DNA of 64,000 nucleotides, taken from positions 1,236,276 to 1,300,275 of the forward strand of contig OZ241921.1 in NCBI GenBank assembly GCA_965203935.1, given 5' to 3'. Source of the DNA: Bdellovibrionales bacterium (GTDB lineage Bacteria; Bdellovibrionota; Bdellovibrionia; Bdellovibrionales; UBA1609). Under the pieces are notes generated by a model. The model saw nothing but the letters and a program-made list of their open reading frames with translations. It was not told where the DNA came from and did no database searches. A program made the translations under genes and the position numbers. Below, one piece after another: positions 16,171 through 64,000 of this stretch (its first letter is position 1; every line of letters starts with the position of its first letter).

Positions 16171-16175
16171 TGGCC

Positions 16176-27645: not shown

Positions 27646-27706
27646 AAAGTTAATATGTTCATCTTTGCTTGAAATTAAGAGTAATGATCATTATGATGGG
27701 ATTGTT

Positions 27707-32879: not shown

Positions 32880-33030
32880 CTGACTAAATAATGGGGCGTG
32901 AAAAAGGCTATTAAACTGCTGATCTGCAAGCAAAGTCCAAGCTTGTTCAGGACGGAATACCTTGGACCTTCACCGCTTGGCTTTGCTTGCAGACATAATT
33001 TAAAGGGGTTTTTCACAGCCCACTAAATAA
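32880..33030. repeat. single palindromic repeat module (variant arms)
   Basis: GTGAAAAAGGCTATTAAACTGC...TCTGCAAGCAAAGTCCAAG / CTTGGCTTTGCTTGCAGA...TTTTTCAC. Both arms carry the same variant relative to other copies. Confidence 0.85.
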
Positions 33031-33085
33031 TTTTTTAAGTAAACGGGTTTATGTGACGATTAAAAGTTTATAAAATTAAAAGGGG

Positions 33086-34231: not shown

Positions 34232-34284
34232 GCTAAAACAATATACCTCTTCACAAAGCGCTAAATAGTCGGGCGTGATAAACC

Positions 34285-34312
34285 TTGCAAGAATCGGAAA
34301 TTGTGTGATAAA
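34285..34312 (+). promoter_or_regulatory. candidate sigma70-type promoter of module A (TTGCAA-16 nt-TGtGATAAA)
   Basis: The same sequence is conserved at 34976-35003 (+) and 38210-38237 (-) in front of all three paralogues. The -10 lies only ~10 nt from the ATG. Confidence 0.3.
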
Positions 34313-34321
34313 GTGATGTTT

Positions 34322-34774
34322 ATGAAAAATTTTACTTTTTTTATCAGTTTTTTGATACTTTATGGCCTTCCTCCGGCAAAGGCTCAAAGTAATGATATAT
34401 CAACCGGCGAAGAGGCACAAAATAAAAATAAGCGATCCTCCTACGCCAAAAATTATCTACGACCGGGGGGCATTTTTCCATTGGCGTTGGAGTTTCATAA
34501 ATGGCCTGATAAAGAGGAAAAAGAGACTATTCTGCGGTACACAAAAGAAAAAGGCCTGCGAAAAGTAAGAGAGGTTGCCTTTAACAAAGTCTGGGCTTTT
34601 GAATGGGTGGAAGAACCAGAAAAAAAACCAAAAACTATCTCCTCCTCCTTTACAGCTACAAAAATCTGTATGGAATTTCCAAAACTTAAATCCGTAAAAC
34701 ACTGTATTGCAGATTCGTTGCTCTTTCCTCCACTTTCTCCCGGAGAGTTGAATCTCGATCTTTACCCACAATAA
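34322..34774 (+). CDS. small secreted protein, paralogue A of a triplicated family
   Basis: Signal peptide MKNFTFFISFLILYGLPPAKA|Q and conserved core WPDKEEKETILRYTKEKGL...ICMEFPKLKSVKHC. Paralogues at 35013-35474 and 37733-38200. Confidence 0.6.
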   Translation: MKNFTFFISFLILYGLPPAKAQSNDISTGEEAQNKNKRSSYAKNYLRPGGIFPLALEFHKWPDKEEKETILRYTKEKGLRKVREVAFNKVWAFEWVEEPEKKPKTISSSFTATKICMEFPKLKSVKHCIADSLLFPPLSPGELNLDLYPQ

Positions 34775-34780
34775 AGATAT

Positions 34781-34972
34781 ATGAAAAAACAAAGCCCGGC
34801 CTGTTTTTTGGTGTTCCTGCTTTATATCTTTAATCCCTCGGATGCTTTGTCTCAAAATAAGACAATAAACAAAACAATCGGTTCTTTTTCACAATTCATC
34901 CCTGAAAGCTCTCTTAAAAAAAATAAAACCGTATTGCCGGAAACAGATCAAAAGCAACATTTTCTTAAATAA
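34781..34972 (+). pseudogene. truncated copy of the S8 protease 5' end (leader only, 63 codons)
   Basis: MKKQSPACFLVFLLYIFNPSDALSQNKTINKT.GSFSQFIPESS matches the first ~45 aa of the 681-aa protein, then diverges and stops. Confidence 0.6.
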
Positions 34973-35012
34973 AACTTGCAAGAATCGGAAATTGTGTGAT
35001 AAAGTGATGTTT

Positions 35013-35474
35013 ATGAAAAATTTTACTTTTTTTATCAGTTTTTTGATACTTTATGGCCTTCCTCCGGCAAAGGCTCAAAATAATGATATATCAACCGGCA
35101 AAGAGGCACAAAATGAGCGACTCGCTGCCCATATTAAACAGTACTATCAGGCGGCGGGCATTATATTGGAGTTTTATAAATGGCCTGATAAAGAAGAAAA
35201 AGATGTTATTTTGCAGTACACAAAAGAAAACGGCCTGAAAAAGGCAAGAACAATTACCTTTTACAAAGGCTGGTCTTTTGACTGGGTGGAAGAGCCAAAA
35301 TTACCAAAAAACCCAAAAACACTGAACGATCTCTTCTCCGCCTCCTCTTTTATAGCTACAAAAATCTGTATGGAATTTCCAAAACTTAACTCCGTAAAAG
35401 ACTGTGTTGCAAATGCGTTGATCTTTCCCCCGCTTATTCCCGGAGAATTGAGCCCCGGTGTTTACCCAAAATAA
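35013..35474 (+). CDS. small secreted protein, paralogue B
   Basis: Same signal peptide and core as paralogues A and C. Immediately upstream of the full-length S8-like protease. Confidence 0.6.
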   Translation: MKNFTFFISFLILYGLPPAKAQNNDISTGKEAQNERLAAHIKQYYQAAGIILEFYKWPDKEEKDVILQYTKENGLKKARTITFYKGWSFDWVEEPKLPKNPKTLNDLFSASSFIATKICMEFPKLNSVKDCVANALIFPPLIPGELSPGVYPK

Positions 35475-35480
35475 AGATAT

Positions 35481-37526
35481 ATGAAAAAACAAAGGCCGGT
35501 CTGCTTTTTTGTGTTTCTGCTTTATATCTTTAATCCCTCGGATGCTTTGTCTCAAAATAAGACAATAAACAAAACAGCCGGTTCTTTTTCACAGTTCATC
35601 CCTGAAAGCTCTTTTAAAAAAAATAAAACAGAAAAAACCTTAAATCCTTGTAGTGATATTCCCCATTCCCGTTTAAAGGTACAAGCTTATAACCCTTCCA
35701 AAAAGAGGTATGAGGAAAGCAGTCATGCAACAAAAACTCTATCCACTTATTGGGCGCAAAATATGATAGGGGCGGATCTTTTAAAACAGGAATTAAAAAA
35801 AACAAAACCCCATAAAAAAAATCTTGTCGCTGTATTTGATTTTTTCCCTCCCTATGTTGCTGACAGTCACGGTATTGCAGTTAAAAATCTTATATCCGGT
35901 AAGGGGGATCAAGCCGTATTGCCGGAAGCGGGACATCATGTAAGAAAGGTTGAACTGCACTCAACAGATGTTTTTCCCGATTTTTATAAAGAGATCGAAA
36001 GAAAATGCGGCAATCAGCATCTTCATCATTCCGAAAACTTTAGAAAATGCAAAAATAAAATCCTGCCTTCTTTTGTTAATCATTCAATGACTATAGGCGC
36101 TGTCGGCTTTTGGGAGATGGGCTACGGGACAAAAAAAGAATGGGACAGATGGATAGCTGATAATGACTTGAATAACCCGAAACTAAACAGCACACTTTTA
36201 CGATACTTGAAAAACAAAGGCGTACTTCCTCCGAAAAACGGCAAATTATCTAAAGCGGACATTAAATATTTTCTGGGCCAAATGCAGAAAGTACCAATCT
36301 CACAGGAAAAAAGATTTAAGTACTTTAGAAAATTAGCCTTCGATAAAGTTATTTTTATGAATATCGGGGGAAATTTTGTTAATGAGCCTGTTGCTGAAAT
36401 AGCAACCCGTGCTTCAAAAGACTTTAATGTTATTTTAGTGGGCAGTTTGGACCCAAATGGCAGAAGAAGCGCCTTTTCGCAAGAGGGTGAGCAGGTGCAT
36501 ATTATGGCGCCCTCCGGGACGGATATTCATTCGGCTGACAAAAACGGAAAGCTTGTAAGATTTAGAGGTACCAGTGGAGCCGCGCCTTTGGTTACAGCCT
36601 CCCTGGCGGGCTTTGAGTGGATGTCGGGTTACCACCCCACGGCGGAAGAGGCTAAAATTCTTTTAGAAAAAACCGCTGTCCCTCATTTATACTCAAACGA
36701 TACACCTCGTAAAAATGGTGTGGGAATGGTAAATGCCTACAAATTGGGGATAGTGGGAAAAGAGTTAAAAGAAATCTGCAAAAAGGACCAAGCCTGTTTC
36801 AAACGGATGATCCGAATGAACGCCACCTACGATACTGTGTCGTCCGGGGATACCAACTTAATGGAGGATTTAAAACGCACCTTTCCTGAATGTAGTAAAT
36901 CTTCTTGCACACAGTCTTCCGAAGCTTCCTGCTTGGAAAAGGCAAAGCTTTTTAACAGATTAAGAAAGGCTGTTTTTCTTCAGCCCAAAGACAGAAAACT
37001 TTGGAGGTATATGTCTTGTATTTACAGCTCCAATCAGAATCTGAAAGAGGAAAGCGAAGGCGCTTTTAACATATATAGGGCTTTGGCGAAGGGATACATC
37101 AGCACGCAAACAAATGTTTCCTGCAAAGATTACACAGATTGTGTTTTATCCCCTGTATGCCCGGCCGGGCCTGCCGGACCTGCCGGGCCAGCCGGACCAG
37201 CCGGACCTGCTTTGTTTGTTCCTCTGAATAAAGATGGGGCTGAAGCTCATTACATTGACTGCATTCGCCGGAACAGAAAAATCCCTTTTTGTAAAGATCA
37301 ATGCCGGTGTAAGGATCAAGAAGAAGTGCGGGGGACATACACAAAAGACAAAAAGCCGGTTGAGGCGATAAGGCGCTATAAAACCAAGTGTAAGAGCTTT
37401 CAATGTGTTATGGATATGGAGGAGAAACAAGTCCCGGAAAAGCAAGAGAGTGTTCAGCCACCCCAGCCAAAAAGAAAAACCATCCCTCCGGCAAAACCTT
37501 TAGAAGGCTCACGGGCCATACAATAA
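35481..37526 (+). CDS. secreted subtilisin-like (S8) serine protease with Cys-rich C-terminal region
   Basis: Signal peptide. Asp/His/Ser motifs LVAVFDFF, DSHGIAVKNLISG and RGTSGAAPLVTASLAG. (PAG)5 collagen-like run and a Cys-rich tail. The Asp-His spacing is unusually short. Confidence 0.6.
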   Translation: MKKQRPVCFFVFLLYIFNPSDALSQNKTINKTAGSFSQFIPESSFKKNKTEKTLNPCSDIPHSRLKVQAYNPSKKRYEESSHATKTLSTYWAQNMIGADLLKQELKKTKPHKKNLVAVFDFFPPYVADSHGIAVKNLISGKGDQAVLPEAGHHVRKVELHSTDVFPDFYKEIERKCGNQHLHHSENFRKCKNKILPSFVNHSMTIGAVGFWEMGYGTKKEWDRWIADNDLNNPKLNSTLLRYLKNKGVLPPKNGKLSKADIKYFLGQMQKVPISQEKRFKYFRKLAFDKVIFMNIGGNFVNEPVAEIATRASKDFNVILVGSLDPNGRRSAFSQEGEQVHIMAPSGTDIHSADKNGKLVRFRGTSGAAPLVTASLAGFEWMSGYHPTAEEAKILLEKTAVPHLYSNDTPRKNGVGMVNAYKLGIVGKELKEICKKDQACFKRMIRMNATYDTVSSGDTNLMEDLKRTFPECSKSSCTQSSEASCLEKAKLFNRLRKAVFLQPKDRKLWRYMSCIYSSNQNLKEESEGAFNIYRALAKGYISTQTNVSCKDYTDCVLSPVCPAGPAGPAGPAGPAGPALFVPLNKDGAEAHYIDCIRRNRKIPFCKDQCRCKDQEEVRGTYTKDKKPVEAIRRYKTKCKSFQCVMDMEEKQVPEKQESVQPPQPKRKTIPPAKPLEGSRAIQ

Positions 37527-37549
37527 TTGTTTTTAGTTCAAAGGCTCTT

Positions 37550-37726
37550 TTATGATGTTTCTTTTTCCGGCAATACGGTTTTATTTGTTTGAAAAGAGCT
37601 TTCAGGGATGAACTGTGAAAAAGAACCGGCTGTTTTGTTTATTGTCTTATTTTGAGACAAAGCCTCCGAGGAATTAAAAACATAAAGCAGGAATACCAAA
37701 AAACAAGCCAACCTTTGTTTTTTCAT
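37550..37726 (-). pseudogene. truncated inverted copy of the S8 protease 5' end (58 codons)
   Basis: Read on the minus strand: MKKQRLACFLVFLLYVFNSSEALSQNKTINKTAGSFSQFIPESSF..., stopping soon after. Convergent with the full-length gene. Confidence 0.55.
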
Positions 37727-37732
37727 ATATCT

Positions 37733-38200
37733 TTATTGTGGATAAACTTCGGGGGCTAACATGTCCTCTCCGGGAGGAAGCGGGGGAAAGATCAACGAAT
37801 TTGCAATACAGTGTTTTACGGAGTTAAGTTTTGGAAATTCCATACAGATTCTTGTAGCTATAAAAGAGGAGGCGGAGAAGAGATCGTTCAGTGTTTTTGG
37901 GTTTTTTGGTAATTTTGGCTCTTCCACCCAGTCAAAAGACCAGCCTTTGTAAAAAGTAATTGTTCTTGCCTTTTTCAGGCCGTTTTCTTTTGTATACCGC
38001 AGAATAGTCTCTTTTTCCTCTTTATCAGGCCATTTATGAAACTCCAATATAATGCCCGCCGCCTGATAGTACTGTTTGATATAGGTGGCGAGTCGCTCAT
38101 TTTGTGCCTCTTCGCCGGTTGATATATCATTACTTTGAGCCTTTGCCGGAGGAAGGCCATAAAGTATCAAAAAACTGATAAAAAAAGTAAAATTTTTCAT
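37733..38200 (-). CDS. small secreted protein, paralogue C (inverted)
   Basis: About 90 percent nucleotide identity by eye to paralogue B, with patches that match paralogue A (EKETILRY, VKHCIA). Confidence 0.6.
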   Translation of the reverse strand: MKNFTFFISFLILYGLPPAKAQSNDISTGEEAQNERLATYIKQYYQAAGIILEFHKWPDKEEKETILRYTKENGLKKARTITFYKGWSFDWVEEPKLPKNPKTLNDLFSASSFIATRICMEFPKLNSVKHCIANSLIFPPLPPGEDMLAPEVYPQ

Positions 38201-38240
38201 AAATGTCACTTTATCACACAATTTCCGATTTTTGCAAGTT

Positions 38241-38568
38241 TTATCACGCCCGACTATTTAGTAGCCCGTGAAAAACCCTTGGGCTTTAGCTGTTTTTGTC
38301 CAAAGTCCGCACCGTTTCGTGACGGAATACGATTTAACACTCACGGCACGGACTTTGGACAAAAATGCTTAAGGGGGGCACTTGTTCACGGGCGATTATT
38401 TAGTAGCCCGTGAAAAACACCTGTAAATTATGTCTCAAAAGCAAAGCCAAGCGGTGACGGGCGTATAGGCCAACGATTTGGCCTTCCGTTTCGTCCCGAA
38501 CAAGCCGGGGTTTTGTATGTGAGACTTACTAAATTCAGACTTTTTCACGAGCTACTATTTAGCGCTTT
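38241..38568. repeat. mosaic palindromic intergenic repeat array (two modules)
   Basis: A TTTTTGTCCAAAGTCCG-type module (38269-38385) and a degenerate TCTCAAAAGCAAAG-type module, with the junction TTATTTAGTAGCCCGTGAAAAA. Confidence 0.8.
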
Positions 38569-38579
38569 GTGAAGAAGTA

Positions 38580-39144: not shown

Positions 39145-39474
39145 ATGGAAATGGAAGGACAAAAAATACGGATCCGCCTTATGGGTTTCGATCACAAGCT
39201 TTTGGATCAATCCGTTAAGGGGATTATGGATACAGCTAAAAGAACGGGCGCGCAGGTGGCCGGCCCTATTCCTTTACCTGTAAAAATCAATCGTTACACT
39301 GTTTTACGCTCCCCTCATGTCAATAAAAAATCCAGAGAACAATTTGAAATAAGACGCTATAAACGGCTTTTGGAAATTTCTGAACCCACTCCACAAACCA
39401 TAAGTCAGCTGACAAAATTGGATCTGCCGGCCGGGGTGGATGTGCTGGTCTCCACAGGAACACAAAATGGCTGA
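39145..39474 (+). CDS. rpsJ: 30S ribosomal protein S10
   Basis: [18 protein letters not shown]...[15 protein letters not shown]. Confidence 0.95.
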
Positions 39475-40543
39475 CAAAAACACGCGGTCTTCCGCAGAAA
39501 AAAATCCTAAGAAAGAAAAATCAGAGTCAGGTAAAAAGCCTTCTGAGCTGAAAGCCAAAAAAGCTGAGCTTAAAAAAGCTTCTGATCTAAAAGCCAAATC
39601 AGAGCCGGTTAAAAAGCCTGAGCAAAAAGCTGTTGCGAAAGCTGAAGGTAAAAAGGCTTCAGAACAAAAAGCCAAATTAGATCCGGTTAAAAAGCCTTCG
39701 AGTAAAAAGCCTGAGCAAAAAGCTGTTGCGAAAGCTGAAGGTAAAAAGGCTTCAGAACAAAAAGCCAAATCAGAGCCGGTCAAAAAACCTTCGAGTAAAA
39801 AGCCTGAGCAAAAAGCTGTTGCGAAAGCTGAGGTTAAAAAGCCTTCTGAGCCAACAGCCAAAAAAGATCCGGTCAAAAAGCCTTCCGAACAAAAAGCCAA
39901 AGAAGAAATTAAACTAAACGGCCTTTACGCCTTTAAATTGGCTATGTCCTCTCTTTATACAGAAAAAGGACAGGTTGTGCCGGTCACTTTTTTAAAGTTC
40001 AAGCCTTGGCTTGTGTCTCAAATCAAGAGAAAAGAAAAAGAAGGATATAACTCAGTTCAGCTGGCCTGTGTGCCTGCGAAAAACAAAACCTGCTCAAAAG
40101 CGGTGAAAAATCATTTGTCCCCGGCGGGTCTTTCAGGAAAGTCGCTTTTTATAAGAGAAATTAGGCAAAAATCGGTGGACAATATAAAAGTGGGGCAGGC
40201 TCTTTCTATTCATTCTCTTCAAAAAGGGGACAGGGTGAAGTTGCAGGCTGTTTCTAAGGGGCATGGTTTTACGGGCGTGGTAAAAAGATGGGGTTTTAAA
40301 GGAGGCCCCGCCTCTCACGGATCTAAAACACACAGGACAGGAGGCTCCATCGGCAACCGCACAGAGCCTGCCCGGGTCATGCCGGGCAAAAAAATGGCAG
40401 GCCGTTACGGAGTGGAAAAAACCAGCCTGAAAAATGTACAGGTCATAGATGTTATTTCAAGCGAAAACATGATCGTGGTAAAAGGGCCTGTGCCCGGGGC
40501 CGGAAACGGCCTTGTGCTTTTATCCAAAATGGAGAAAAGGTAA
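39467..40543 (+). CDS. rplC: 50S ribosomal protein L3 with ~155-aa Lys/Ala/Glu-rich N-terminal extension
   Basis: The L3 core starts near [24 protein letters not shown] and includes [20 protein letters not shown]. It is preceded by [22 protein letters not shown] repeats. The ATG at 39467 overlaps the rpsJ stop. Confidence 0.9.
39611..39889. repeat. 93-bp tandem repeat x3 inside the rplC 5' extension
   Basis: AAAAAGCCTGAGCAAAAAGCTGTTGCGAAAGCTGA... recurs at 39611, 39704 and 39797 (period 93 = 31 codons). Confidence 0.85.
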
Positions 40544-41266: not shown

Positions 41267-41528
41267 ACGGCCTCTCCTGACGGAGAAAAACAACCTTCTG
41301 GCCGGTAAAAATATTTATGTTTTTCAAGTGGATCGCTCCGCAAACAAGACGGAAATCAAAAAACATATTGAAAAATATTTTAATGTTGGGGTGCGCTCGG
41401 TAAAAACAGCAGTTTGCCGGGGCAGGGCGCGCCGAACCCGTGTGGGCCTTGGGCGTGTAAAGTATTGGAAAAAAGCCGTTGTCCGCCTTAAAGAAGGCGA
41501 AACAGTTAACCTGTTTGAAGGAAACTAA
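41250..41528 (+). CDS. rplW: 50S ribosomal protein L23
   Basis: 92-aa ORF. IKRPLLTEKN...VFQVDRSANKTEIKKHIEKYF. Confidence 0.9.
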   Translation: MSQLIKRPLLTEKNNLLAGKNIYVFQVDRSANKTEIKKHIEKYFNVGVRSVKTAVCRGRARRTRVGLGRVKYWKKAVVRLKEGETVNLFEGN

Positions 41529-41671
41529 AGCCAAAGGCTTTTGCTTGGCGTACTTTTAAGGAGTAACAAACTAAAGAAGAAAAAAACTAAAGCCAAAGGC
41601 TTTTGCTTGGCGTACTTTTAAGGAGTAACAAACTTAAAGAAAAAAAAACTAAAGCCAAAGAGGTAACAAAA
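41525..41671. repeat. 62-bp tandem repeat (2 copies plus a partial third) in the rplW-rplB spacer
   Basis: CTAAAGCCAAAGGCTTTTGCTTGGCGTACTTTTAAGGAGTAACAAAC... starts at 41525 and 41587, with a partial copy at 41649. The last copy supplies the rplB SD/ATG context. Confidence 0.85.
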
Positions 41672-48451: not shown

Positions 48452-48650
48452 TCGGGCGTGAAAAAGGCTACTAAACTGCATGGTCTCAAAAGCAAAGTCC
48501 AAGCTTGTTCAGGCTGAAAGCCCTACGGATAGGGCTTTCAGTTTTACGAAAAAACAAAGAAGAACGGAAGGCCAAATCGTTGGCCTATACGCCTTCACCG
48601 CTTGGTTTTGCTTTTGAGACATAATTTACAGGTGTTTTTCACGGGCTACT
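48447..48650. repeat. palindromic repeat module inserted between rpmD and rplO
   Basis: AAATAGTCGGGCGTGAAAAAGGCTACTAAACTGC...TCTCAAAAGCAAAG...CTGAAAGCCCTACGGATAGGGCTTTCAG...GGCCAAATCGTTGGCC...TTGCTTTTGAGA...TTTTTCACGGGCTACT. Its left flank overlaps the rpmD stop codon. Confidence 0.85.
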
Positions 48651-48671
48651 GCATAAAGTACAGGAGAGACT

Positions 48672-50896: not shown

Positions 50897-51087
50897 CTCC
50901 CGCTGTCTGCCGGCACCGGTAAATTTAGTATATCATACAAAATAAGTCAATAAAAACCGGTTAAATAGGAAAAATACCTGTTTTTAACAAATAAAATATT
51001 AAAGTTTTTTTATTCCACAGCCGATAACAGCTTATAGCTGTTTTTCTTGACCGGGTGGTAATATGAAAAAATTTTATAACAGGCGCT

Positions 51088-52779
51088 TTGCCGGCTTTTC
51101 TGTCGTCACCCCCCCCCCCCCCCCATTCCAAAAAATCCAGTAATTTCAATAGTTTACATACATTTCTTCATCTAAAAACTTCAGCCGGCAAAGCCTGTTA
51201 TTTCGCCGCGGGTCTTTCCCGGTTAAAAAGCTGTGTTTGTTTTATAAAGTCACGAGTACGACAACAAAGTCGCGTCGCTATCGCCGGCATTGCCGGTTTC
51301 GGGCTGGTGGAGGTTTTGGTTTTGGCCGGCTTGGGGCTGGTGGTGTCTTTGGGAAGTTTAAAGCTGGCTCAGGTGGAGTCTCGATCCGCTTTGATTATGA
51401 AAGCAGGGCTGGCGGAGCGGGATTTAAGCTATACTCTAAAATCTGTCTTAAGCGAAGATTGCAAATGGAACTTAAAGCCCGGCAGAACCGGCGGGCTTGC
51501 CTCAGACGGCACGGGCGCTTTAAGCGCGCTTAAAAAAACTTACGGCAACAACGAAGGCGAATCACCAAATATAAACGATGACATTAGCTTAATCACCACG
51601 GGCGATTTTAAAAACGCTTTAGACATCATAAAGATGGAGTTTAAAGATCCTAATGCAGGAAATACCGACACAGATGAAAGGTCTTTTTTTGTTTACTACA
51701 AGAAAAAAGGGCTTGGGAGTGTAAGCACGGTGGGAAACAGGACCTGCACAAATGGCACGGGGGCTGAGGATCAAGCAGGCTGTTATCTTATAAAATGCGA
51801 TATGCAGTATTCTCTTCATAAAACAACAGGTAATGACAAGTGTTCCCTCTCAGGTTGTGTGACAGGGGCGGGACATGCAGACAAAGCGGGCCTTATCTGT
51901 GAGGAGGGTAAATATTTACAAGGCATTGACGATCAAGGGAACAAAATTTGTAAGCAGACAGCTCAATCAGGGGAGGGTTGTCCTTCCGGGAAATTTCTTA
52001 AAGGTTTTAAAAGTGACGGCACCGCCGAGTGTGAAACACCCTGCCCGGAAGGCAGGGTATGGAAAAATAACAGTTGCGAATGCCCGGGGAATCAAAGTTG
52101 GAACGGCTCCGCCTGTGCGTGCCCTGTGGATAAGCTTAAGTGGACCGGCACGGCTTGCGAGGCCTGCCCTTCGGATAAACCCAACTGGAACGGCTCTGAT
52201 TGTGTACCGGCCTGCACAAGTGGTACTCCGAAGTGGGATGGCTCAAGCTGTATAACATGTGTAGCTTATAACAGCAATACCCCCAAGTGGAACAGCAGTA
52301 CAAAGAGCTGTGAGGCCTGCCCAAGTGGTACTCCGAAGTGGAATGGTTCAAGCTGTATAACATGTGTGGCTTATAACAGCAATACCCCCCAGTGGAACAG
52401 CAGTACAAAGAGCTGTGAGGCGGCCTGCCCAAGTGGTGCTGATTTGTCCAATGGACATTGCTGTCCTATTGGAAGAGTATATTCCCACGGGGTTTGTTGT
52501 CGCAATGGGTATGTGCGTGTGGGGATATATACCTGTTGCCCAAATGACCGACCATACATGTATTCACAACAGACTGGTTGCTATAGAGAATGCGCGGGCA
52601 CGATTGTAAGAAGATCCTTCGCCGGATATATATGTGCCTGCCCCGACAGTAAGCCCCACTTCTATCACAGCCAATGCAATGTCTGTGGCCCCCTTGAGCA
52701 GTTGTCCAATGGACATTGCTGTCCTTGGGGGTATGTGTATTCCCACGAGTACGAGCGATGTGGGGCTTTTGACTTTTGA
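51088..52779 (+). CDS. pilin-like cysteine-rich repeat surface protein, paralogue 1 (start uncertain, possibly phase-off)
   Basis: Track ORF (TTG start) contains IAG|FGLVEVLVLAGLGLVVSLGSL (prepilin-type Gly / F-x-L-x-E with Glu+5 plus hydrophobic helix), a conserved head (DCKWNLKPGRTGGL.SDGTGALSALKKT) and CxxC/PKW(N/D)GS repeats. SD+ATG at 51063 is out of frame across the C16 tract. Confidence 0.65.
   Translation: MPAFLSSPPPPPHSKKSSNFNSLHTFLHLKTSAGKACYFAAGLSRLKSCVCFIKSRVRQQSRVAIAGIAGFGLVEVLVLAGLGLVVSLGSLKLAQVESRSALIMKAGLAERDLSYTLKSVLSEDCKWNLKPGRTGGLASDGTGALSALKKTYGNNEGESPNINDDISLITTGDFKNALDIIKMEFKDPNAGNTDTDERSFFVYYKKKGLGSVSTVGNRTCTNGTGAEDQAGCYLIKCDMQYSLHKTTGNDKCSLSGCVTGAGHADKAGLICEEGKYLQGIDDQGNKICKQTAQSGEGCPSGKFLKGFKSDGTAECETPCPEGRVWKNNSCECPGNQSWNGSACACPVDKLKWTGTACEACPSDKPNWNGSDCVPACTSGTPKWDGSSCITCVAYNSNTPKWNSSTKSCEACPSGTPKWNGSSCITCVAYNSNTPQWNSSTKSCEAACPSGADLSNGHCCPIGRVYSHGVCCRNGYVRVGIYTCCPNDRPYMYSQQTGCYRECAGTIVRRSFAGYICACPDSKPHFYHSQCNVCGPLEQLSNGHCCPWGYVYSHEYERCGAFDF
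51109..51124 (+). repeat. homopolymeric poly-C tract, 16 nt
   Basis: Counted directly. Followed by ATTCCAAAAAATCCAGTAATTTCAATA, a flank shared with the tract at 62072. Confidence 0.95.
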
Positions 52780-52839: not shown

Positions 52840-53715
52840 ATGATTTTTTTACAAAAATTGGTTTTAGGAAGAGCGGGTTTTGGATTGGTGGAGATTTTAA
52901 TTACCGCCGGGGCGGGGCTTGTTCTGGGGGCGGGTATGTTGACTTTGTTTCAAAATTCTTTGCAAAACTCTTCAGCTCTTAAGGTTTTAGCTGTGGAGCG
53001 GGACTTAAGCTCCCGCTTAAGAGAGATCTTAAATAATCCCGCTGACTGCAAGTGGAACTTAACACCGGGCCGAACCGGCGGGCTTTCATCAGACGGCACA
53101 GGCGCTTTAAGCGCGCTTAAAAAAACTAATGGCAGTACAAATCCTTCAGATTATAAACCTGCGATCGAAAAAGGCGTATTTAAAGGCAAACTGGAGGTGG
53201 TAAAGCTGGAGTTTTCGGGAAGCGCCAATGAAAGAACTTTTACAGTGTATTACAAAAGAAAAGGCTTAAAAGTTTACAATACTTTAGGGGGCGGGGCTTG
53301 TGCCACAGGCGACACAAGCGGGTGTTACTTTGAATCCTGCAAAGTGAATTATACTTATTCAGGAACAACAGTTAACACCTGCGCTTTGCTTAATTGCGCG
53401 GTGGATGAAGTCATAAAAAGCGTAAGTAAAAAAACCTGCGGACAGCATCAAAACTTAAGAGGCTTTGACAAAAACGGTGAGCCTGTTTGTAAGCCGGTGG
53501 CTCAAGCGGGAGATATTTGCCCTGCGGGACAGTTCTTAAAACATTTTGACGGCAAGGGCAAAGCGGTTTGTGAAACAGCCTGCTCCGCCGGTGCGACATG
53601 GAAGGGATCTTCCTGTGTCTGCTTGGGCGGCAGAATATGGAACGGTTCCACCTGCACCTGTCTGCACGGCAAGTATTGGGATGGATCAAAATGCGTGGCT
53701 GATTCCTCCACTTAA
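52840..53715 (+). CDS. pilin-like cysteine-rich protein, paralogue 2 (short classical leader)
   Basis: MIFLQKLVLGRAG|FGLVEILITAGAGLVLGAG, a short basic leader ending in Gly. Same conserved head as paralogues 1 and 3, with a short Cys-rich tail. Confidence 0.7.
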   Translation: MIFLQKLVLGRAGFGLVEILITAGAGLVLGAGMLTLFQNSLQNSSALKVLAVERDLSSRLREILNNPADCKWNLTPGRTGGLSSDGTGALSALKKTNGSTNPSDYKPAIEKGVFKGKLEVVKLEFSGSANERTFTVYYKRKGLKVYNTLGGGACATGDTSGCYFESCKVNYTYSGTTVNTCALLNCAVDEVIKSVSKKTCGQHQNLRGFDKNGEPVCKPVAQAGDICPAGQFLKHFDGKGKAVCETACSAGATWKGSSCVCLGGRIWNGSTCTCLHGKYWDGSKCVADSST

Positions 53716-53716: not shown

Positions 53717-56485
53717 ATGAAGGGTTTATTTATGAATATTTGTTTTATAAAGTCACGAATACGGCAACAAAGCCGCGCCCGCAAAGCGGGTTGTTTCGCC
53801 GTGGGTCTTTCCCGGTTAAAAAGCTGTGTTTGTTTTATAAAGTCACGAATACGGAACTGTAGCCGCGTCGCTATTCCCTCCCCCGTAGGGGGATTTGGAT
53901 TGGTGGAAACCTTAATTACCGCCGGGGTGGGCTTAACCATTGGTATGGGTATGCTGAAGGTAAGTCAGGTGTCTTTGCAGACTTCACAAATGATAGAGAC
54001 TTCTTTTGCGGAGAGGGATTTAAGCTACAGCATAAGACAGGTTTTAAGCAATCCCGCTGACTGCAAGTGGAACTTAGAGCCTGGCCGAACCGGCGGGCTT
54101 TCTTCAGACGGCACGGGAGCTTTAAGCGCGCTTAAAAAAACTTACGGCAGTACAAATCCTTCAGAATATGTGACTGTGATTGAGAAAGGGGTTTTTTCAA
54201 ACAAATTGGAAGTGGTAAAGCTGGAGTTTTCATCTTCGGGAAGTGCCAATGAAAGAACCTTTAAAGTGTATTACAAAAAAAAGAACTTGGGATCCTACAG
54301 CAGTTTAGGGGACTGCACCGCAGGCGACACAAGCGGATGTTATTTTAAATCCTGCAAGGTGGATTATGCTTTTTCAGGAACGACAGTAAACACCTGCGAT
54401 TTGCTTAATTGCGCCGGCATGGGCGGGGATACAGCAGTCGGTGAGTGCAGGGACAACGAATATTTAAGGGGCTTTGACAAAAGCGGGCGCCCGGTTTGCA
54501 GTCAGATGGTTCAGCCGGGTCTTGCGCCTTGTGAGCAGGGCAGGTTTCTTACAGGTTTTGATGATGATGGAGAGCCTGTTTGTAGAATCCTGTGCGGGGG
54601 CGGGCGAACTTGGAACGATCAAGAAGGAGCTTGTGTATGCCCCGACAGCAGTAAGCCGCATTGGAGTGGAGCTTCCTGTATTTCCTGCGAAGGCGGGCAA
54701 ACATACCAAACCGGTGTAGGCTGTCTTTGCCCCGCCGGCAGTAATTGGAACGGGAGCGCCTGTATAACTTGCACGGGGGGTAAAACTTGGAGTGGCACGG
54801 CCTGTGTTTGCCCCCCTTACAAACCTGAATGGAACGGCACGGCCTGCACAGCCTGCCCCACTGCCCGGCCAAACTGGGATGGTTCCAATTGTCGGGCCTG
54901 CCCCCCCGCCAATCCTAAATGGACAGGATTTCAGTGTTCAAGCTGTCCTTCCCATAAACCCAAGTGGGACAGCGCCACCTCCGACTGCATAGCCTGCCCT
55001 TCTAACCGGCCCAAGTGGGACAGCGCCACTTCCACCTGCACGGCCTGCCCTTCCGCCAATCCTAAATGGACGGGTTTTCGGTGTTCAAGCTGTCCCTCCC
55101 ATACACCCAAGTGGGACAGCGCCACTTCCGACTGCATAGCCTGCCCTTCTAACCGGCCCAAGTGGGACGGCTCCACCTGCACAGCCTGCCCCTCCGCCAA
55201 TCCCAAGTGGTCGGGATTTCGGTGTTCAAAGTGTCCTTCCCATAAACCCAAGTGGGACAGCGCCACCTCCACTTGTACGGCCTGCCCTTCCGGCAGTAAT
55301 TGGAACGGGAGCGCCTGTATAACTTGCACAGGGGGAAAAGTTTGGGACAGCAGATCTTGCATTTGCCCTTCTCATAAGCCCAAGTGGGATGGGGCAAAAT
55401 GTGTTCCCTGTACAGGCAGAAGGATATGGGATACTTCCTCTTCAGAATGTGTGTGTCCAAGTGATATGCAATACGATGATTCAAAAGGGGAGTGCGTCTG
55501 TCGCCCTGACCGGCCCTATTGGAGTAAGGCATTCCTATTTTCAATTAGACAACACTTTACAGTGGCATATAAACCCAAAGGTTGCTCTCGTTGCCCGGGA
55601 GATCTGAAATGGAATGGCTCAGACTGTGTTTGTTTTACAGGTGGGATAAAAAGAGGAAACAGCTGTATATGCCCATCAGGTCAGTACTCCTGGAATTTAA
55701 ACAACCTTGGTATAGGGAGACTCACCTGCCTGCCTTGCCCGACAGGCAGTCAAGTGGACGGTATCATCTGTCGTTGTCACGAGGCTACGCCAAAATTTTC
55801 TGCAGATGACAGAAGTTGTGAAGCCTGCCCTGCTGAAAAACCTGCTTGGATCGGTAGTCGGGGCAGATGCAACACTTGCTCAAACGAATATGGAAGTGAA
55901 TATCACTTTACCGGCTCAGAGTGCCTTAAATGCGGGGGTGATCTTGTGTACGACAGTTCCCGCAAAACCTGTGTTTGCCCTGCGGGTGAAAAAGAAGTCC
56001 AGAGGAACGGACACAATATAAGCTGTTGCCCGAATAACAGTGATTGGAACGGCTCAACTTGCCTTAACTGCGGGGGTGGTCTTTACGATAGTTCCCGCAA
56101 AACCTGTGTTTGCCCTGCGGGTGAAAAAGAAGTCCAGAGGAACGGACACAATATAAGCTGTTGCCCGAATAACAGTGATTGGAACGGCTCAACTTGCCTT
56201 AACTGCGGGGGTGGTCTTTACGATAGTTCCCGCAAAACCTGTGTTTGCCCTGCGGGTGAAAAAGAAGTCCAGAGGAACGGACACAATATAAGCTGTTGCC
56301 CGAATAACAGTGATTGGAACGGCTCAACTTGCCTTAACTGCGGGGGTGGTCTTGTGTACGACAGTTCCCGCAAAACCTGTGTTTGCCCTGCGGGTGAAAA
56401 AGAAGTCCAGAGGAACGGAAACAATATAAGCTGTTGCCCGAATAACAGTGATTGGAACGGCTCAAATTGCATTCTTCGCAACTAA
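53717..56485 (+). CDS. pilin-like cysteine-rich repeat surface protein, paralogue 3
   Basis: The ATG sits 2 nt after the paralogue 2 stop. The leader has two 30-aa repeats (CFIKSRIR...GLSRLKSCV), then VGG|FGLVETLITAGVGL, the conserved head and ~650 aa of Cys-rich repeats. The track ORF start at 53546 overlaps the upstream gene. Confidence 0.7.
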   Translation: MKGLFMNICFIKSRIRQQSRARKAGCFAVGLSRLKSCVCFIKSRIRNCSRVAIPSPVGGFGLVETLITAGVGLTIGMGMLKVSQVSLQTSQMIETSFAERDLSYSIRQVLSNPADCKWNLEPGRTGGLSSDGTGALSALKKTYGSTNPSEYVTVIEKGVFSNKLEVVKLEFSSSGSANERTFKVYYKKKNLGSYSSLGDCTAGDTSGCYFKSCKVDYAFSGTTVNTCDLLNCAGMGGDTAVGECRDNEYLRGFDKSGRPVCSQMVQPGLAPCEQGRFLTGFDDDGEPVCRILCGGGRTWNDQEGACVCPDSSKPHWSGASCISCEGGQTYQTGVGCLCPAGSNWNGSACITCTGGKTWSGTACVCPPYKPEWNGTACTACPTARPNWDGSNCRACPPANPKWTGFQCSSCPSHKPKWDSATSDCIACPSNRPKWDSATSTCTACPSANPKWTGFRCSSCPSHTPKWDSATSDCIACPSNRPKWDGSTCTACPSANPKWSGFRCSKCPSHKPKWDSATSTCTACPSGSNWNGSACITCTGGKVWDSRSCICPSHKPKWDGAKCVPCTGRRIWDTSSSECVCPSDMQYDDSKGECVCRPDRPYWSKAFLFSIRQHFTVAYKPKGCSRCPGDLKWNGSDCVCFTGGIKRGNSCICPSGQYSWNLNNLGIGRLTCLPCPTGSQVDGIICRCHEATPKFSADDRSCEACPAEKPAWIGSRGRCNTCSNEYGSEYHFTGSECLKCGGDLVYDSSRKTCVCPAGEKEVQRNGHNISCCPNNSDWNGSTCLNCGGGLYDSSRKTCVCPAGEKEVQRNGHNISCCPNNSDWNGSTCLNCGGGLYDSSRKTCVCPAGEKEVQRNGHNISCCPNNSDWNGSTCLNCGGGLVYDSSRKTCVCPAGEKEVQRNGNNISCCPNNSDWNGSNCILRN
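55931..56485. repeat. 135-138 bp near-identical tandem repeat x4 at the 3' end of paralogue 3
   Basis: Units start at 55931, 56069, 56204 and 56339. Each encodes CGGGL(V)YDSSRKTCVCPAGEKEVQRNGHNISCCPNNSDWNGSTCLN. Confidence 0.9.
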
Positions 56486-60520: not shown

Positions 60521-60670
60521 CTAAGTAGTAGTCCGTGAAAAACCCTTTTAAATTATGTCTCAAAAGCAAAGCCAAGCGGTGAGGGTCCAAGGTATTCCGT
60601 CCCGAACAAGCTTGGACTTTGCTTTTGAGACCAGCAGTTTAGTGGCCTTTTTCACGCCCCACTAAGTATT
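60521..60670. repeat. palindromic repeat module (inverted orientation)
   Basis: CTAAGTAGTAGTCCGTGAAAAA...TCTCAAAAGCAAAGCCAAG...CTTGGACTTTGCTTTTGAGA...TTTTTCACGCCCCACTAAGTA. It overlaps the last codons of the AAA ATPase gene. Confidence 0.85.
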
Positions 60671-61860
60671 TGATGATTCCATAACCGGCGCAAAAACTCC
60701 GACCAGTGAAGGCAGTGGATATTATCTTGTAAAATATTATCCGGGTCACAGGTGACCAGAAAAAATTGTTTAAATATTTGTTCCTCTCTAAGAGCTTTTA
60801 AGCCCCGCAGATGTTTTGGTGAAGCTCTTTGTGTGGATTTAATTGCAAGGGCTGTATCCTCTCCTATGGTCAGATCCACTTCCTGCCGGTTGGTTGATTG
60901 CCAGTACCCCATTTTTTTAAAAATCCGGTGGTAATGCAAATAAGCGCGTATTTCATGAATAATCCAATGTTCAAAACTTTTTCCAAAAAGAGAGGAATGG
61001 GGGCTTAAGCTTTTTGTTTCTATAAGAGAATGAAGAACTCCCGGATCAAAAAAATAAAACTTGGCTTTGGAAATAGCTTTTCTTTTTTTCGACTTTATCC
61101 AAGGTTCCAGAAAGAAACCCAAAAAAGTTTCCTCCAAAATGGAGTAATATTCCCTTACCGTGCTGGGGGCGATGCCATAATCACCGCCTAATTTTGTAAA
61201 GTTTAAAATATCGCCACTGCAAAGTGCGGAGGCTTCCAAAAATCTGGAGAACTGGGGTATTTTTTTTACCAAAGCCTCCGCTTGAATTTCCTCTTTCAGG
61301 TAGTTGCTTCTGTAGGCGATCAGCTCTTCTTCAGGATCGGGGCTTAAATGCACGAAAGGCAGACCCCCATAAAGCAAATACCGGTTTAAATTAAAATTCC
61401 TTGGGCCTATTTCATGGAAAGTCAGAGGGTACAGATAAGCGCTCCAAGCTCTGCCTGCCAACAGGTTGGCGCCTCCTCGTTTAAGTTTTCTGGAAGAGCT
61501 TCCAGTCAGTAAAAACTTCCAACTTCTTTTTTCAATTAAACGATGCACTTCATCTAAAATTGAGGGGAGCTTTTGCACTTCATCAATAACAACCAGAATA
61601 TCTTTTGAGTTTATTTTTTGCTCCCGGATTTTTTCTTCTACACTGTTTTCCATAAAGGCCTGGGACACAGACAAGCGGTGGAAAATTCTGTGTTTTAACA
61701 GATCAAACAAAAAGACTTTTTTTGCCTTCCCGCCGGACATTAAGCTCTGCATAATGAGGTGACTTTTGCCTACAGCCCTTGGGCCAAACAGGAAAAAGGA
61801 CTTTTTTTTCAAGAGCGCGGGTAAATCAAGGGCTCTTTTTATGTTTTTTTGTTTTTTCAT
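60652..61860 (-). CDS. AAA-family ATP-binding protein (AAA_14/DUF4143-like)
   Basis: 402-aa ORF. Walker A GPRAVGKSH, Walker B VVIDEVQ and a C-terminal region typical of DUF4143 ATPases. Confidence 0.7.
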   Translation of the reverse strand: MKKQKNIKRALDLPALLKKKSFFLFGPRAVGKSHLIMQSLMSGGKAKKVFLFDLLKHRIFHRLSVSQAFMENSVEEKIREQKINSKDILVVIDEVQKLPSILDEVHRLIEKRSWKFLLTGSSSRKLKRGGANLLAGRAWSAYLYPLTFHEIGPRNFNLNRYLLYGGLPFVHLSPDPEEELIAYRSNYLKEEIQAEALVKKIPQFSRFLEASALCSGDILNFTKLGGDYGIAPSTVREYYSILEETFLGFFLEPWIKSKKRKAISKAKFYFFDPGVLHSLIETKSLSPHSSLFGKSFEHWIIHEIRAYLHYHRIFKKMGYWQSTNRQEVDLTIGEDTALAIKSTQRASPKHLRGLKALREEQIFKQFFLVTCDPDNILQDNIHCLHWSEFLRRLWNHQILSGA

Positions 61861-62035: not shown

Positions 62036-64000
62036 ATGACTATGAGCTTTTTTATTAAAAAACCCTTTTCACCCCCCCCCCCCCCCCCCCCAAATTCCAA
62101 AAAATCCAGTAATTTTAATAAGTTAAAATATTTTCTTCATGTATTTTCTAAGTTTTTCGCCTGCTTTTTAAAGGGCCGGAGGGTTCAAACAGGCGCCGGG
62201 GTTTTACGAAACATCAGTCAAAGTATTTGTGAAAAGGGGGTTCAAAAGCTCAATATCGCAATTTCTGCCCGGCTTTCAAAAGGCCGGGCTTTACGCAACA
62301 TCAGCAAAGGTATTTGTGAAAAGGGGGTTCAAAAGCTCAAACATGCGTTTTGCCACACCCGCGTCTTGCAATTGCTTCGTGTTCAAAGCCGAACTCGTTT
62401 TGAACCCCCTTTTCACAAAATAATAATCTGCTTTTTCTCCAAAACTTTATGTGCCTGCACCCGCTTTTTAAAGGGCCGGAGGGTTCGGACAGGCGCCGTT
62501 TGGCGATATTTGATTTTCACGATTGAAATATTGTTCAAAAAAAGTCCCTTATTTGAGACATGCTGTTTGGCTCTACGAAACTTGAGAGCTTTATTGTTCC
62601 GGCTTTGCCATTACTCAAATATCGCCAAAGGCGAACTCACCTCCAGCCCTTTAAAAAGCGGGCGGATCTCCCAATTTTTGTCATTCCTGCGGTGTTCGTC
62701 ATTCCCGCGAAAGCGGGAATCCAGCTCCCGCAAAGCGGGACTTTTCACTTCCGCTTGTTTCCGGTTAAAAAGCTTATTTTGTTTCACACTGTTACGAGTA
62801 CGGAATTGGAGTCGCGTCGCAGGCAGAGCCTGTTATTTCGCCGCGGGTCTTTCCCGGTTAAAAAACTGTTTTCGTTTCACAATGTCACGAGTACGGCAGA
62901 TAAGTCGCGTCGCAGGCGGAGCCTGTTATTTCGCCGCGGGTCTTTCCCGGTTAAAAAACTGTTTTTGTTTCACACTGTCACGAGTACGGCAGATAAGTCG
63001 CGTCGCAGGCGGAGCCTGTTATTTCGCCGCGGATCTTTCCCGGTTAAAAAGCTGTTTTTGTTTCACACTGTCACGAGTACGGCAGATAAGTCGCGTCGAA
63101 ATAACCGGCTCTGCCGGTTTTGGTTTGGTGGAGGTTTTGTTTGTGTCGGGTTTGGGCTTAACGGTCACAATGGGGTCTTTAAAAACGGCTCAGCTTACTT
63201 TTCAGTCCTCCAATATGGTGAAGACCACTTTACAGGAAAAGGATTTTAAAGAAGAGTTAAGCGCTCTTTTAAACAATCCCTCTTATTGCAAAGCTCTTTT
63301 AAAGCCTTCCAACCTTGCTGATTCATCCGGCAAAAAAGGCTTTCTTACTTCAATGGGCCGGCTTACGGACTTGGAAAATAGCTTTATAGACATTCAAAAA
63401 GCGGAGTTGAAAGAGGATCGTAATTTTTTTGTATACTATAAAAAGCCTTTGCTGGGGGAGTTTCAAACAATAGGAAATGGGGCTTGTTCTTCCACTGATA
63501 CCACAGGCTGTTACTTTTTTTCATGTAAAATGGACTATCAGTGCGCCGGTAATGAATGCTCCGGCGATGACGACAAATGCGCGCCTCTTAATTGTTCAGG
63601 CTATATCGAGACTACGGAGGCTGTAGGAGCCAATATTCCTGATTGCCCTGAGGGTACCTATCTTACAGGGATTTCGGACGAAGGTCAGCCTGAATGCGGA
63701 ACTTTATCCTGCCCGGAAGGGCGGGTTCTCAGCGGAACACAGGTAAACACAGAGGACAATACCATAACTCCTTTGTGTTTGGAGGTTTCAGAATGTGAAG
63801 AGGGGGAGATTTATCAGGGAGTGGATAGTGAGGGAGTAAAACAGTGCGCGCCTGTGGCATCGGCGCAAAGTCAGGTCTGCCCTCCCGGGCAATATTTGTT
63901 TAATTCCGGCCAAATGGGAGATCCCCTGGTCTGTCAGCCCCTATGCCAAGGAGGGGGAATATGGAACGGCACAAGTTGCGTATGCCCCGCCGATCAAAGT
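62036..64000 (+). CDS. pilin-like cysteine-rich repeat surface protein, paralogue 4 (3' end outside window, true start uncertain)
   Basis: Hand translation shows one frame (62036 mod 3) open from ATG 62036/62042 through the C20 tract, hairpin repeats and 93-bp repeats to SAG|FGLVEVLFVSGLGLTVTMGSL (63116-). It continues through the head and Cys-rich region to 64000. Absent from the ORF track because it runs off the window. The conservative core is 63113-64000, and an internal in-frame ATG lies at 62882. Confidence 0.6.
   Translation, partial: MTMSFFIKKPFSPPPPPPPNSKKSSNFNKLKYFLHVFSKFFACFLKGRRVQTGAGVLRNISQSICEKGVQKLNIAISARLSKGRALRNISKGICEKGVQKLKHAFCHTRVLQLLRVQSRTRFEPPFHKIIICFFSKTLCACTRFLKGRRVRTGAVWRYLIFTIEILFKKSPLFETCCLALRNLRALLFRLCHYSNIAKGELTSSPLKSGRISQFLSFLRCSSFPRKRESSSRKAGLFTSACFRLKSLFCFTLLRVRNWSRVAGRACYFAAGLSRLKNCFRFTMSRVRQISRVAGGACYFAAGLSRLKNCFCFTLSRVRQISRVAGGACYFAADLSRLKSCFCFTLSRVRQISRVEITGSAGFGLVEVLFVSGLGLTVTMGSLKTAQLTFQSSNMVKTTLQEKDFKEELSALLNNPSYCKALLKPSNLADSSGKKGFLTSMGRLTDLENSFIDIQKAELKEDRNFFVYYKKPLLGEFQTIGNGACSSTDTTGCYFFSCKMDYQCAGNECSGDDDKCAPLNCSGYIETTEAVGANIPDCPEGTYLTGISDEGQPECGTLSCPEGRVLSGTQVNTEDNTITPLCLEVSECEEGEIYQGVDSEGVKQCAPVASAQSQVCPPGQYLFNSGQMGDPLVCQPLCQGGGIWNGTSCVCPADQS
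62072..62091 (+). repeat. homopolymeric poly-C tract, 20 nt
   Basis: Counted directly. Followed by AAATTCCAAAAAATCCAGTAATTTTAATA. Confidence 0.95.
62316..62416. repeat. hairpin element with 19-bp perfect arms
   Basis: GTGAAAAGGGGGTTCAAAA...(63 nt)...TTTTGAACCCCCTTTTCAC. A half copy lies at 62229-62247, a full copy at 16227-16327 and a half copy at 27242-27260. Confidence 0.9.
62761..63112. repeat. 93-bp tandem repeat, ~3.8 copies, in the leader of paralogue 4
   Basis: CCGGTTAAAAA recurs at 62761, 62854, 62947 and 63040 (period 93 = 31 codons). Related single and double copies lie at 51186-51290 and 53741-53880 (period 90). Confidence 0.9.

Follow-up and report, generated by a model that had tools for sequence, protein, structure and literature searches.

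The window analysed here is a stretch of 64,000 nucleotides from contig OZ241921.1 of the Bdellovibrionales bacterium assembly GCA_965203935.1 (positions 1,236,276 to 1,300,275, forward strand). It contains four genes, paralogues 1-4, whose products share the motif G|FGLVE, the bar marking the predicted prepilin-type cleavage site between Gly(-1) and Phe(+1). A tandem array of 93-bp units precedes paralogue 4, which itself runs off the window end, and it is this array and the leaders of these genes that are described here. Their features, all on the plus strand, are the following.

51063-51294, leader of paralogue 1: ATG at 51063 preceded by GGTGGT, 16 C at 51109-51124, one repeat unit at 51184-51294
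51295-52779, Gly(-1) codon and mature protein of paralogue 1
52840-53715, paralogue 2: 13-amino-acid leader (MIFLQKLVLGRAG|F) with neither the unit nor a simple-sequence repeat
53717-53890, leader of paralogue 3: ATG at 53717, second ATG at 53732, two unit anchors, no poly-C
53891-56485, Gly(-1) codon and mature protein of paralogue 3, with Cys-rich C-terminal repeats
62036-62044, start codons of paralogue 4 (ATG 62036 and ATG 62042), both in phase with G|FGLVE
62072-62091, poly-C tract of paralogue 4: 20 C encoding a Pro run, the proposed slipped-strand frameshift switch, predicted ON
[quoted passage not shown]
62161-62260 and 62286-62340, module copies inside the leader of paralogue 4
62455-62665, leader element with terminal inverted repeats of about 50 bp
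62690-62760, leader palindromes ATTCCCGCGAAAGCGGGAAT and CCCGCAAAGCGGG
62761-63098, 93-bp tandem array
63097-63119, junction element: inverted copy of the unit core (63097-63115) and hairpin AACCGGC-TCT-GCCGGTT (63103-63119), then a T-rich run
63116-64000, Gly(-1) codon and mature pilin-like protein of paralogue 4 (FGLVEVLFVSGLGL...), leaving the window

A preliminary description of this locus had proposed that in-frame leader repeats of 90-93 bp differ in copy number between the paralogues, and this holds at every gene. Tandem Repeats Finder places the array before paralogue 4 at 62761-63098, with a period of 93 bp, 3.6 copies, 93% matches and no indels. The anchor TCACGAGTACGG recurs in frame at 62792, 62885, 62978 and 63071 (spacings of 93, 93 and 93 bp), at 53753 and 53843 before paralogue 3 (90 bp apart) and singly at 51250 before paralogue 1; paralogue 2 has a plain short leader and no unit. 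The Gly codons of G|FGLVE lie at 51295, 52876, 53891 and 63116, and all units share their phase; the in-frame ATG reported at 62882 is present. Translated in the G|F frame the array reads (S/L)RVR(Q/N)(I/W)SRVAG(G/R)ACYFAA(G/D)LSRLK(N/S)CF(C/R)FT(L/M). A second frame (ORF, open reading frame, 62560-63249) is likewise open through the array, so that the G|F frame is not alone there. A 37-nt unit core has four matches in the window and a 40-nt core three; neither has any in 100 shuffles.

The window belongs to a metagenomic genome of about 2 Mb, of which about 134 kb was read; all statements below made for 134 kb rest on that sequence. Within it, unit sites occur exclusively upstream of G|FGL(V/L)E genes and on the coding strand, in agreement with the proposal of in-frame leader modules peculiar to these genes. 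The alternative raised at the time, that the unit would turn up at many unrelated intergenic sites as a generic repeat, is contradicted by the same survey, in which all copies lie in leaders; a dispersed repeat or MITE would be expected at many unrelated sites, on either strand and with terminal inverted repeats, and the 93-bp unit does not behave in this way. Scans with the DNA pattern CCGGTTAAAAA-N19-GTYACGARTACG gave 0 matches in GTDB representative genomes and 0 in JGI metagenomes. Among the paralogues the copy number ranges from 0 to 5. In the gene for P0015 (L083 6701-9403), five anchors follow one another at periods of 90 and 93 bp in alternation; the leader is 248 residues long, and the motif is G|FGLVG, without the usual Glu at +5. 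As to the origin of the unit, duplication of an ancestral 30-codon leader together with its cleavage site was considered, the hints being MKNNCFLFIKSRIRQ... in L089 and the presence in each unit of its own 'SRVA + hairpin + T-run'; the resemblance is too slight to support such a claim.

When the leader was part of the query, a protein search recovered further paralogues with the same leader modules, in the same genome and in related contigs, all called with long leaders, and their DNA was fetched. Thirteen leaders were inspected, nine of which contain a poly-C tract. A near-identical sister genome provided a direct comparison (contigs of 2,017,484 bp for the window genome and 2,030,416 bp for the sister): over 21 kb the two differ by two single-nucleotide polymorphisms, one additional 135-bp repeat in paralogue 3 and C-tract differences. 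The SecY of this organism has its best identity, 69%, to a Pseudobdellovibrionaceae metagenome-assembled genome (MAG), which puts it in the Bdellovibrionota. In a set of 80 secY loci, taken with flanks of 10 kb, those closest to this organism come from Pseudobdellovibrionaceae/Bdellovibrionales MAGs (62-69% SecY identity); none has this pilin cluster or the repeat downstream of secY.

The repeats had been taken for a leader module, which they are, but the leader proved far longer than had been supposed. Upstream of the Gly codon of paralogue 4, the G|F frame is open for 361 codons, to 62033, straight through the 20-C tract. Because the leader begins at the ATG upstream of the poly-C, the 93-bp array forms the final part of a leader of 361 codons. 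The public annotation of the window genome agrees, giving a 989-residue product (P0153) that begins MTMSFFIKKPFSPPPPPPPNSKK; public gene calls already take in these long leaders in general. Leader lengths are 13 residues in paralogue 2, 58 in paralogue 3, 360 in paralogue 4 and up to 456 outside the window. The leader of paralogue 4 has an isoelectric point of 11.2 (69 K+R versus 9 D+E) and the mature part one of 4.2; so basic a leader fits a segment that would be kept in the cytoplasm. Where a gene comes second in its operon (paralogue 3, P0015 and P0037), poly-C is absent; the ATG abuts or overlaps the upstream stop and opens a leader of 54-248 codons. In paralogue 3, ATG 53717 is one base past the stop of paralogue 2, and the annotated product, P0011, begins MNICFIKSRIRQQ.

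We then considered the start of the leaders. Seven of them share the sequence ATGAA(A/G)TTTTTATA(C/T)AAAAAACACTCTTA-Cn-ATTCC. Its first seven codons, MKFLYKK, contain three variable sites, all of them synonymous third positions (ratio of non-synonymous to synonymous polymorphism, pN/pS, of 0.07 in a tiny sample), and pN/pS on the 28 codons after the tract gave no informative signal. In the nine poly-C leaders, a run of 15 to 25 C lies 29-46 nt past the ATG. The ATG is in phase with the open frame only if the number of C is 2 modulo 3. By this rule, paralogue 4 (C20), L082 (C23, and C22 plus TCCC) and L085 (C17) would be ON, and paralogue 1 (C16), L084, L086, L087 (C15) and L085 (C19) OFF. Paralogue 1 is placed in the OFF group because its 16 C put the ATG out of phase by 1; the ATG frame meets a TAA six codons past the tract. 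A homologue in a different, 2.2-Mb genome (L088) has an ATG and C26 within a 39-residue leader, both off-frames stopping within a few codons. Within 134 kb, runs of at least 10 C (or G) and of at least 11 A (or T) occur exclusively in these genes. In L083 (4823-4882, P0004), some 15 TTCA copies take the place of the poly-C after the ATG, which is out of phase as assembled. Poly-A tracts of 11-15 A, encoding KKKK, are found near the 3' ends at L082 6593-6603, L084 6378-6392, L085 6647-6659 and L087 6384-6398. Just past them lie other-frame ORFs with Cys-rich repeats (for example L085 6632-7555); these tracts look like a second simple-sequence-repeat switch, which could swap or extend the C-terminus.

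The tracts differ between the two near-identical genomes. Paralogue 1 has 16 C in the window and 25 C in the sister, OFF in both. Paralogue 4 has 20 C in the window and 18 in the sister (L001), whose gene call begins only at a TTG equivalent to 62567; the product is therefore annotated with 989 residues in one genome and 812 in the other. P0158 and P0069 have 7 and 6 Pro codons, respectively, and, of the pair P0006 and P0154, the former is OFF and the latter ON. Tract length thus differs at the three loci where it was measured and a fourth locus differs in ON/OFF state, with the proviso that homopolymer length errors are possible in long-read assemblies. Gene callers, for their part, start these genes at arbitrary internal codons, according to the phase of the tract. 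By contrast, the heterogeneity in unit copy number that the preliminary description envisaged between strains was not seen: copy number and sequence of the 93-bp units are the same in both genomes at paralogues 1, 3 and 4 and at P0069/P0158. Unit number, which differs among paralogues, looks stable on the timescale on which the poly-C changes. Tandem-repeat copy number does vary between the two genomes, not in the leaders but in the C-terminus of paralogue 3, where an in-frame 135-bp repeat (55922-56470) is present in four copies in the window and five in the sister (917 versus 963 residues). Taken together, the poly-C tracts appear to switch these genes ON and OFF.

We next asked how well the leader frame is preserved between the switch and the mature protein. 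From tract to Gly codon, the nine poly-C leaders add up to 5,290 nt, with 0 stops in phase, 90 in frame +1 and 48 in frame +2, so that one downstream frame is open and the others end early. Paralogue 4 by itself, reduced to 838 nt by taking out two near-identical units, has 0, 12 and 9 stops per frame; none of 20,000 shuffles of these 838 nt was open, the mean being 14.6 stops. All 13 leaders are open, over 54-361 codons and with differing module make-up. The repeat periods (93, 90, 87 and 108 bp) are all divisible by three, as is the length of every indel between leader copies, and one paralogue carries a compensated +1/-1 frameshift in its leader. Outside leaders, the same upstream modules often contain stops or frameshifts in the equivalent frame. 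The open frame is maintained across the leaders, and we infer from this that they are translated.

The peptide encoded by the unit is another matter. Among eight distinct 93-bp units, variable columns number 11, 14 and 8 at codon positions 1, 2 and 3 (pN/pS about 1.5), which gives no sign of constraint at the amino-acid level; frame maintenance is therefore the sole argument for translation of the unit. It is best read as a frame-neutral translated spacer, not as a peptide with a conserved function. The same lack of constraint could be turned into a different account, namely that the whole region is an untranslated 5' region or promoter built from generic intergenic repeats, in which the poly-C tunes transcription and the pilin starts at a non-canonical codon before G|F. 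The upstream modules do belong to a family dispersed on both strands elsewhere, 5-7 codons ahead of G|F there is a conserved codon for Ile (ATT, ATC or ATA), and no obvious Shine-Dalgarno sequence precedes the far-upstream ATG. But this account would leave unexplained 0 in-phase stops against 138 in the other two frames, indels only in multiples of three together with the compensated frameshift, the purely synonymous variation of the MKFLYKK codons, and the operon-second paralogues, whose ATG abuts or overlaps the upstream stop and is followed by an open leader. No Rfam family matched between 50900 and 64000 on either strand (E <= 1). A role of the poly-C as promoter spacer was rejected, since at 15-26 nt the tract by itself about equals or exceeds the full length of a -35/-10 spacer, and inspection showed no convincing sigma-70 hexamers on either side. 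We therefore hold an untranslated region to be very unlikely.

Next, the mature proteins were examined. A profile of the mature N-terminal domain retrieved 399 representatives from a set of 1.84 billion proteins; 136 reach E <= 1e-30 (HMMER). This full scan overruled the earlier impression of an orphan family, which came from a word-indexed search with paralogue 2 that returned only itself and paralogue 1. Most of the 399 have textbook short prepilin leaders (for example MKNNKG|FGLVE, MANRG|FTLVE and MKG|FSLIE). Ten full-domain homologues (hmmsearch E of 1e-31 to 1e-57) were tested against TIGR02532, and eight pass: they score 18.0-25.5 bits, the cutoff being 16.3, and their motif falls at the aligned position. 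Since the mature domain belongs to a large family most of whose tested short-leader members pass this model, G|F is homologous to a prepilin cleavage site. In 12 paralogues, G1, F2, G3, L4, E6 and L8 are invariant (Gly-1 being position 1) and are followed by a hydrophobic stretch; the pattern of Gly(-1), about 21 mostly hydrophobic residues and Glu at +5 is thus present throughout, except for P0015, which has Gly for Glu5. The short hydrophilic leader (6-26 residues) usual in prepilins is found in paralogue 2 and is missing from paralogues 3 and 4 and other long-leader members. A gene for a 206-residue, TIGR02532-positive pilin is present in several cassettes. Long called leaders also occur in P0029, P0020/26, P0042/49/51, P0045, P0057 and P0059, made of unrelated repeats or poly-Pro runs. 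The proteins are probably modular and type IV pilin-like, either minor pilins or adhesins, and are predicted to be cleaved at G|F by analogy with prepilins.

With the anatomy of the leaders, the upkeep of their open frame, the membership of the family and the tract-length differences all directly observed, we consider it likely that the array is the last section of a long, in-frame translated leader of a phase-variable, modular type IV pilin-like protein. Translation would start at the ATG about 30 nt before the poly-C, or before (TTCA)n in the one paralogue where this replaces it. Slipped-strand changes in tract length would move the ATG in or out of phase with the sole lasting open frame, the other two frames stopping within about 10-12 codons past the tract. 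Because the leader continues directly into Gly(-1)|Phe(+1), the mature protein would have no start codon of its own and its expression would therefore need read-through of the entire leader. The strongly basic leader would remain cytoplasmic and be removed at G|F by prepilin peptidase. Being discarded, it would be free to take up 93- and 90-bp duplications and MITE-like insertions, provided the frame is preserved. Likewise, as the units are 90 or 93 bp long, a change in their number would never shift the frame, the switch being the separate poly-C.

Several observations weigh against this interpretation, in addition to the unconstrained unit peptide. Firstly, runs of 15-26 C are error-prone in long-read metagenome assemblies, so that the ON/OFF calls and the strain differences may in part be artefacts. 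Secondly, no clear Shine-Dalgarno sequence was seen ahead of the conserved ATG, and the in-frame ATGs in some units could permit expression independent of the switch. Thirdly, the four window paralogues have no TIGR02532 match at E <= 10, whether whole proteins or 45-residue N-termini were used, nor any Pfam match at E <= 0.01 or NCBIfam pilin model at E <= 10. For mature paralogue 2, the AlphaFold model has a helix at 5-53 followed by beta-strands and is of low confidence (mean predicted local distance difference test score 62.8), and a Foldseek comparison of this model with the PDB gave no match at E <= 0.001. Finally, the described lengths of prepilin leaders are 6-26 residues (review PMC4471445); leaders of 54-456 residues are far beyond these and their cleavage by prepilin peptidase is a prediction.

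The history of the leader DNA raises a further possibility. The upstream 87-108-bp modules and the 62455-62665 element form a dispersed MITE-like family present on both strands, some copies adjoining YhgA/Rpn-like genes. Between paralogues, leader units are 85-98% identical in DNA, while the mature domains are 32-64% identical in protein. In addition, P0006 and P0154, probable orthologues from the two genomes, have nearly equal mature parts and differ in their terminal leader module (AITGSAG versus AIPSPVGG). Together these differences suggest gene conversion or a recent spread of leader cassettes. The leaders could accordingly serve mainly as a shared 5' homology cassette for recombination or gene conversion among paralogues, re-assorting switch and leader modules with pilin bodies, a role that is compatible with their translation. 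Hybrid hairpin arms in some units and the YhgA/Rpn-like genes beside several cassettes and module copies point the same way. No such event was caught directly, however, the constancy of the units in both genomes speaks against it, and recent duplication could by itself explain the high identity. We regard recombination as the main role as possible but on the whole doubtful. YhgA/Rpn-like (Pfam Transposase_31) genes adjoin pilin cassettes at L082 8641-9633, L084 8701-9687, L085 8725-9579 and L086 8035-9051, and in the window such a gene (15226-16412) is directly followed by a MITE-like module copy of the kind found in leaders; a link between these genes and the spread or recombination of modules is possible but guesswork.

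The end of the array has a structure of its own. At the array end, 63097-63115 (CGAAATAACCGGCTCTGCC), 18 of 19 positions agree with the reverse complement of GGCAGAGCCTGTTATTTCG, and the junction element covers codons -6 to +1 of the cleavage site. An inverted repeat with every upstream unit had been described here, with the suggestion that it allows a long-range hairpin. The inverted repeat stands; the hairpin is not supported, because the array folds no better than shuffled sequence (z = -1.41, 10 of 100 shuffles as good), single units have a z of about 0 and the junctions are no better than shuffles, so that a stable long-range leader structure was rejected. The local junction stem is a different case. 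Over 13 leaders, 90.5% of cells are paired, both partners have changed in three pairs and none of 500 shuffles attains the score. The stem is of the type CCGGC-N3-GCCGG in some leaders and CCCCC-GTA-GGGGG in others; with only two or three hairpin types, there are few independent covariation events. The hairpin could be a terminator, a recombination site or a by-product.

The first of these roles leads to a specific proposal: the GC hairpins and T-runs in each unit and at the junction would be translation-sensitive transcription terminators. When the tract is out of phase, ribosomes would stop early, the hairpins would form and transcription would end before the pilin body, making for a tighter OFF state. 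A terminator scan flags 63103-63119 (7 pairs, 5 of them GC, tail TTGGTTTGGT) and 62726-62740, slid controls for the compensatory changes in the junction hairpin score much lower, and paralogue 2, which has a short leader and no repeat tract, also lacks the junction hairpin. Set against this, terminator-like sites number 6 versus 3.4 +/- 2.2 in shuffles, which is no excess, the stems are short and the T-runs interrupted, folding energies are unexceptional, the covariation comes from two or three hairpin types, and the palindrome may equally be a DNA-level site. Such terminators seem unlikely to us. Similarly, we think it improbable that the giant leader as a whole is a functional device, its hairpins coupling phase to transcription termination or to peptidase processing and its cassettes recombining onto adhesin bodies; if it were, it would allow programmable variation of pilus tips, perhaps of prey or surface specificity, in a predatory lineage.

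The repeat content of this genome is unusually high for its 2-Mb size. At 34261-38261, a subtilase-like ORF (35481-37526) lies between nested inverted repeats, whose arms reach 478 nt (95% complementary) and among which are several of 107-192 nt; this may reflect duplication of the genes on its flanks, or a segment that is invertible or mobile. Other dispersed families, direct and inverted, lie at 1666-3217, 27233-27647, 32897-33032, 38237-38576, 48458-48658 and 60522-60671, with sequences such as CGTGAAAAAGGCTACTAAACTGC... and AGACATAATTTACAAGGGTTTT... An ORF with a ribosomal protein L3 domain (39440-40543) has a Lys-rich N-terminal extension of about 250 residues, within which lies a tandem repeat (39560-39898) that is unrelated to the leader unit and also has a period of 93 bp. 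The gene calls for L29 (174 residues) and L15 (187 residues) likewise look long. A 62-bp tandem repeat at 41522-41660 (2.2 copies, 97% identical) has no evident connection to the leaders.

If the long translated leader proposed above is real, a leader that is cleaved off would be a safe place for repeats to accumulate, the sole constraint being to keep the frame. Host-adapted pathogens are the classic users of poly-C and (TTCA)n switches. The presence of at least 15 such genes in a Bdellovibrionota genome of 2 Mb, with tracts that are not equally long in near-identical genomes, would widen the range of contingency loci to bacteria that are free-living or predatory, and would point to stochastic variation of pilus-associated adhesins, possibly tied to prey or surface recognition. 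Our literature search found no report of phase variation in Bdellovibrio-like organisms.

Comparison with known systems places the family between several of them. With class III prepilin signal peptides (PMC4471445; TIGR02532) these proteins share the Gly end, Phe, about 20 hydrophobic residues, Glu at +5 and a long predicted helix, and their homologues with short basic leaders pass TIGR02532. They differ in having leaders of 54-456 instead of 6-26 residues, with tandem and dispersed repeats, and the window proteins, with Gly at +3, fall below the threshold of the hidden Markov model. Rickettsia palindromic elements are MITEs inserted in frame in protein-coding genes (review PMC10969869), and like them the leader modules are a dispersed palindromic family lying inside an ORF without breaking it. 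Here, however, the insertions are gathered in one presumably removed part of a single gene family, not in unrelated housekeeping genes, and the 93-bp unit itself is not dispersed. The fusion of a pilin N-terminal module to large variable C-terminal domains recalls modular, tip-forming minor pilins, such as Streptococcus sanguinis PilB (PMC8179133), and the interchangeable Kil pilus 'Tips' of Myxococcus, another predator (PMC12075869); multiple alternative sets in a predator-related lineage are a further likeness. In the portions of these two papers available to us, neither long leaders nor switching by simple-sequence repeats is mentioned for those systems.

Translational phase variation by homopolymeric tracts is covered by general reviews (PMC2831843, PMC5084427). 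As in such systems, tract length here differs between close strains and the paralogues are in mixed ON/OFF states. Neisseria pilC has a poly-G tract in its signal-peptide region that brings about translational phase variation. The likeness is a long G/C homopolymer soon after the start of a pilus-associated surface protein with one downstream frame open; the host here is an environmental, probably predatory member of the Bdellovibrionota and not a host-adapted pathogen, up to 1 kb of translated repeats lies between switch and mature protein, and one paralogue uses (TTCA)n. The Neisseria opa genes carry CTCTT repeats in their leader-coding region, and so, like our genes, have repeats within the leader-coding part of a multigene surface-protein family; the opa unit being 5 bp, its copy number itself shifts the frame, unlike that of the units described here. 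The Mycoplasma vlp and vsp genes combine a conserved 5' cassette and a homopolymer switch with divergent, repeat-rich bodies. They resemble the present family in the conserved 5' or leader cassette over divergent mature regions, in simple-sequence-repeat switching and in in-frame tandem repeats, but their homopolymer lies in the promoter, their lipoprotein signal is of normal length and their in-frame repeats are in the mature protein. Phase-variable surface-protein families and class III signal peptides are thus kinds already known, and leaders of 54-456 residues would be a new variant that joins the two.

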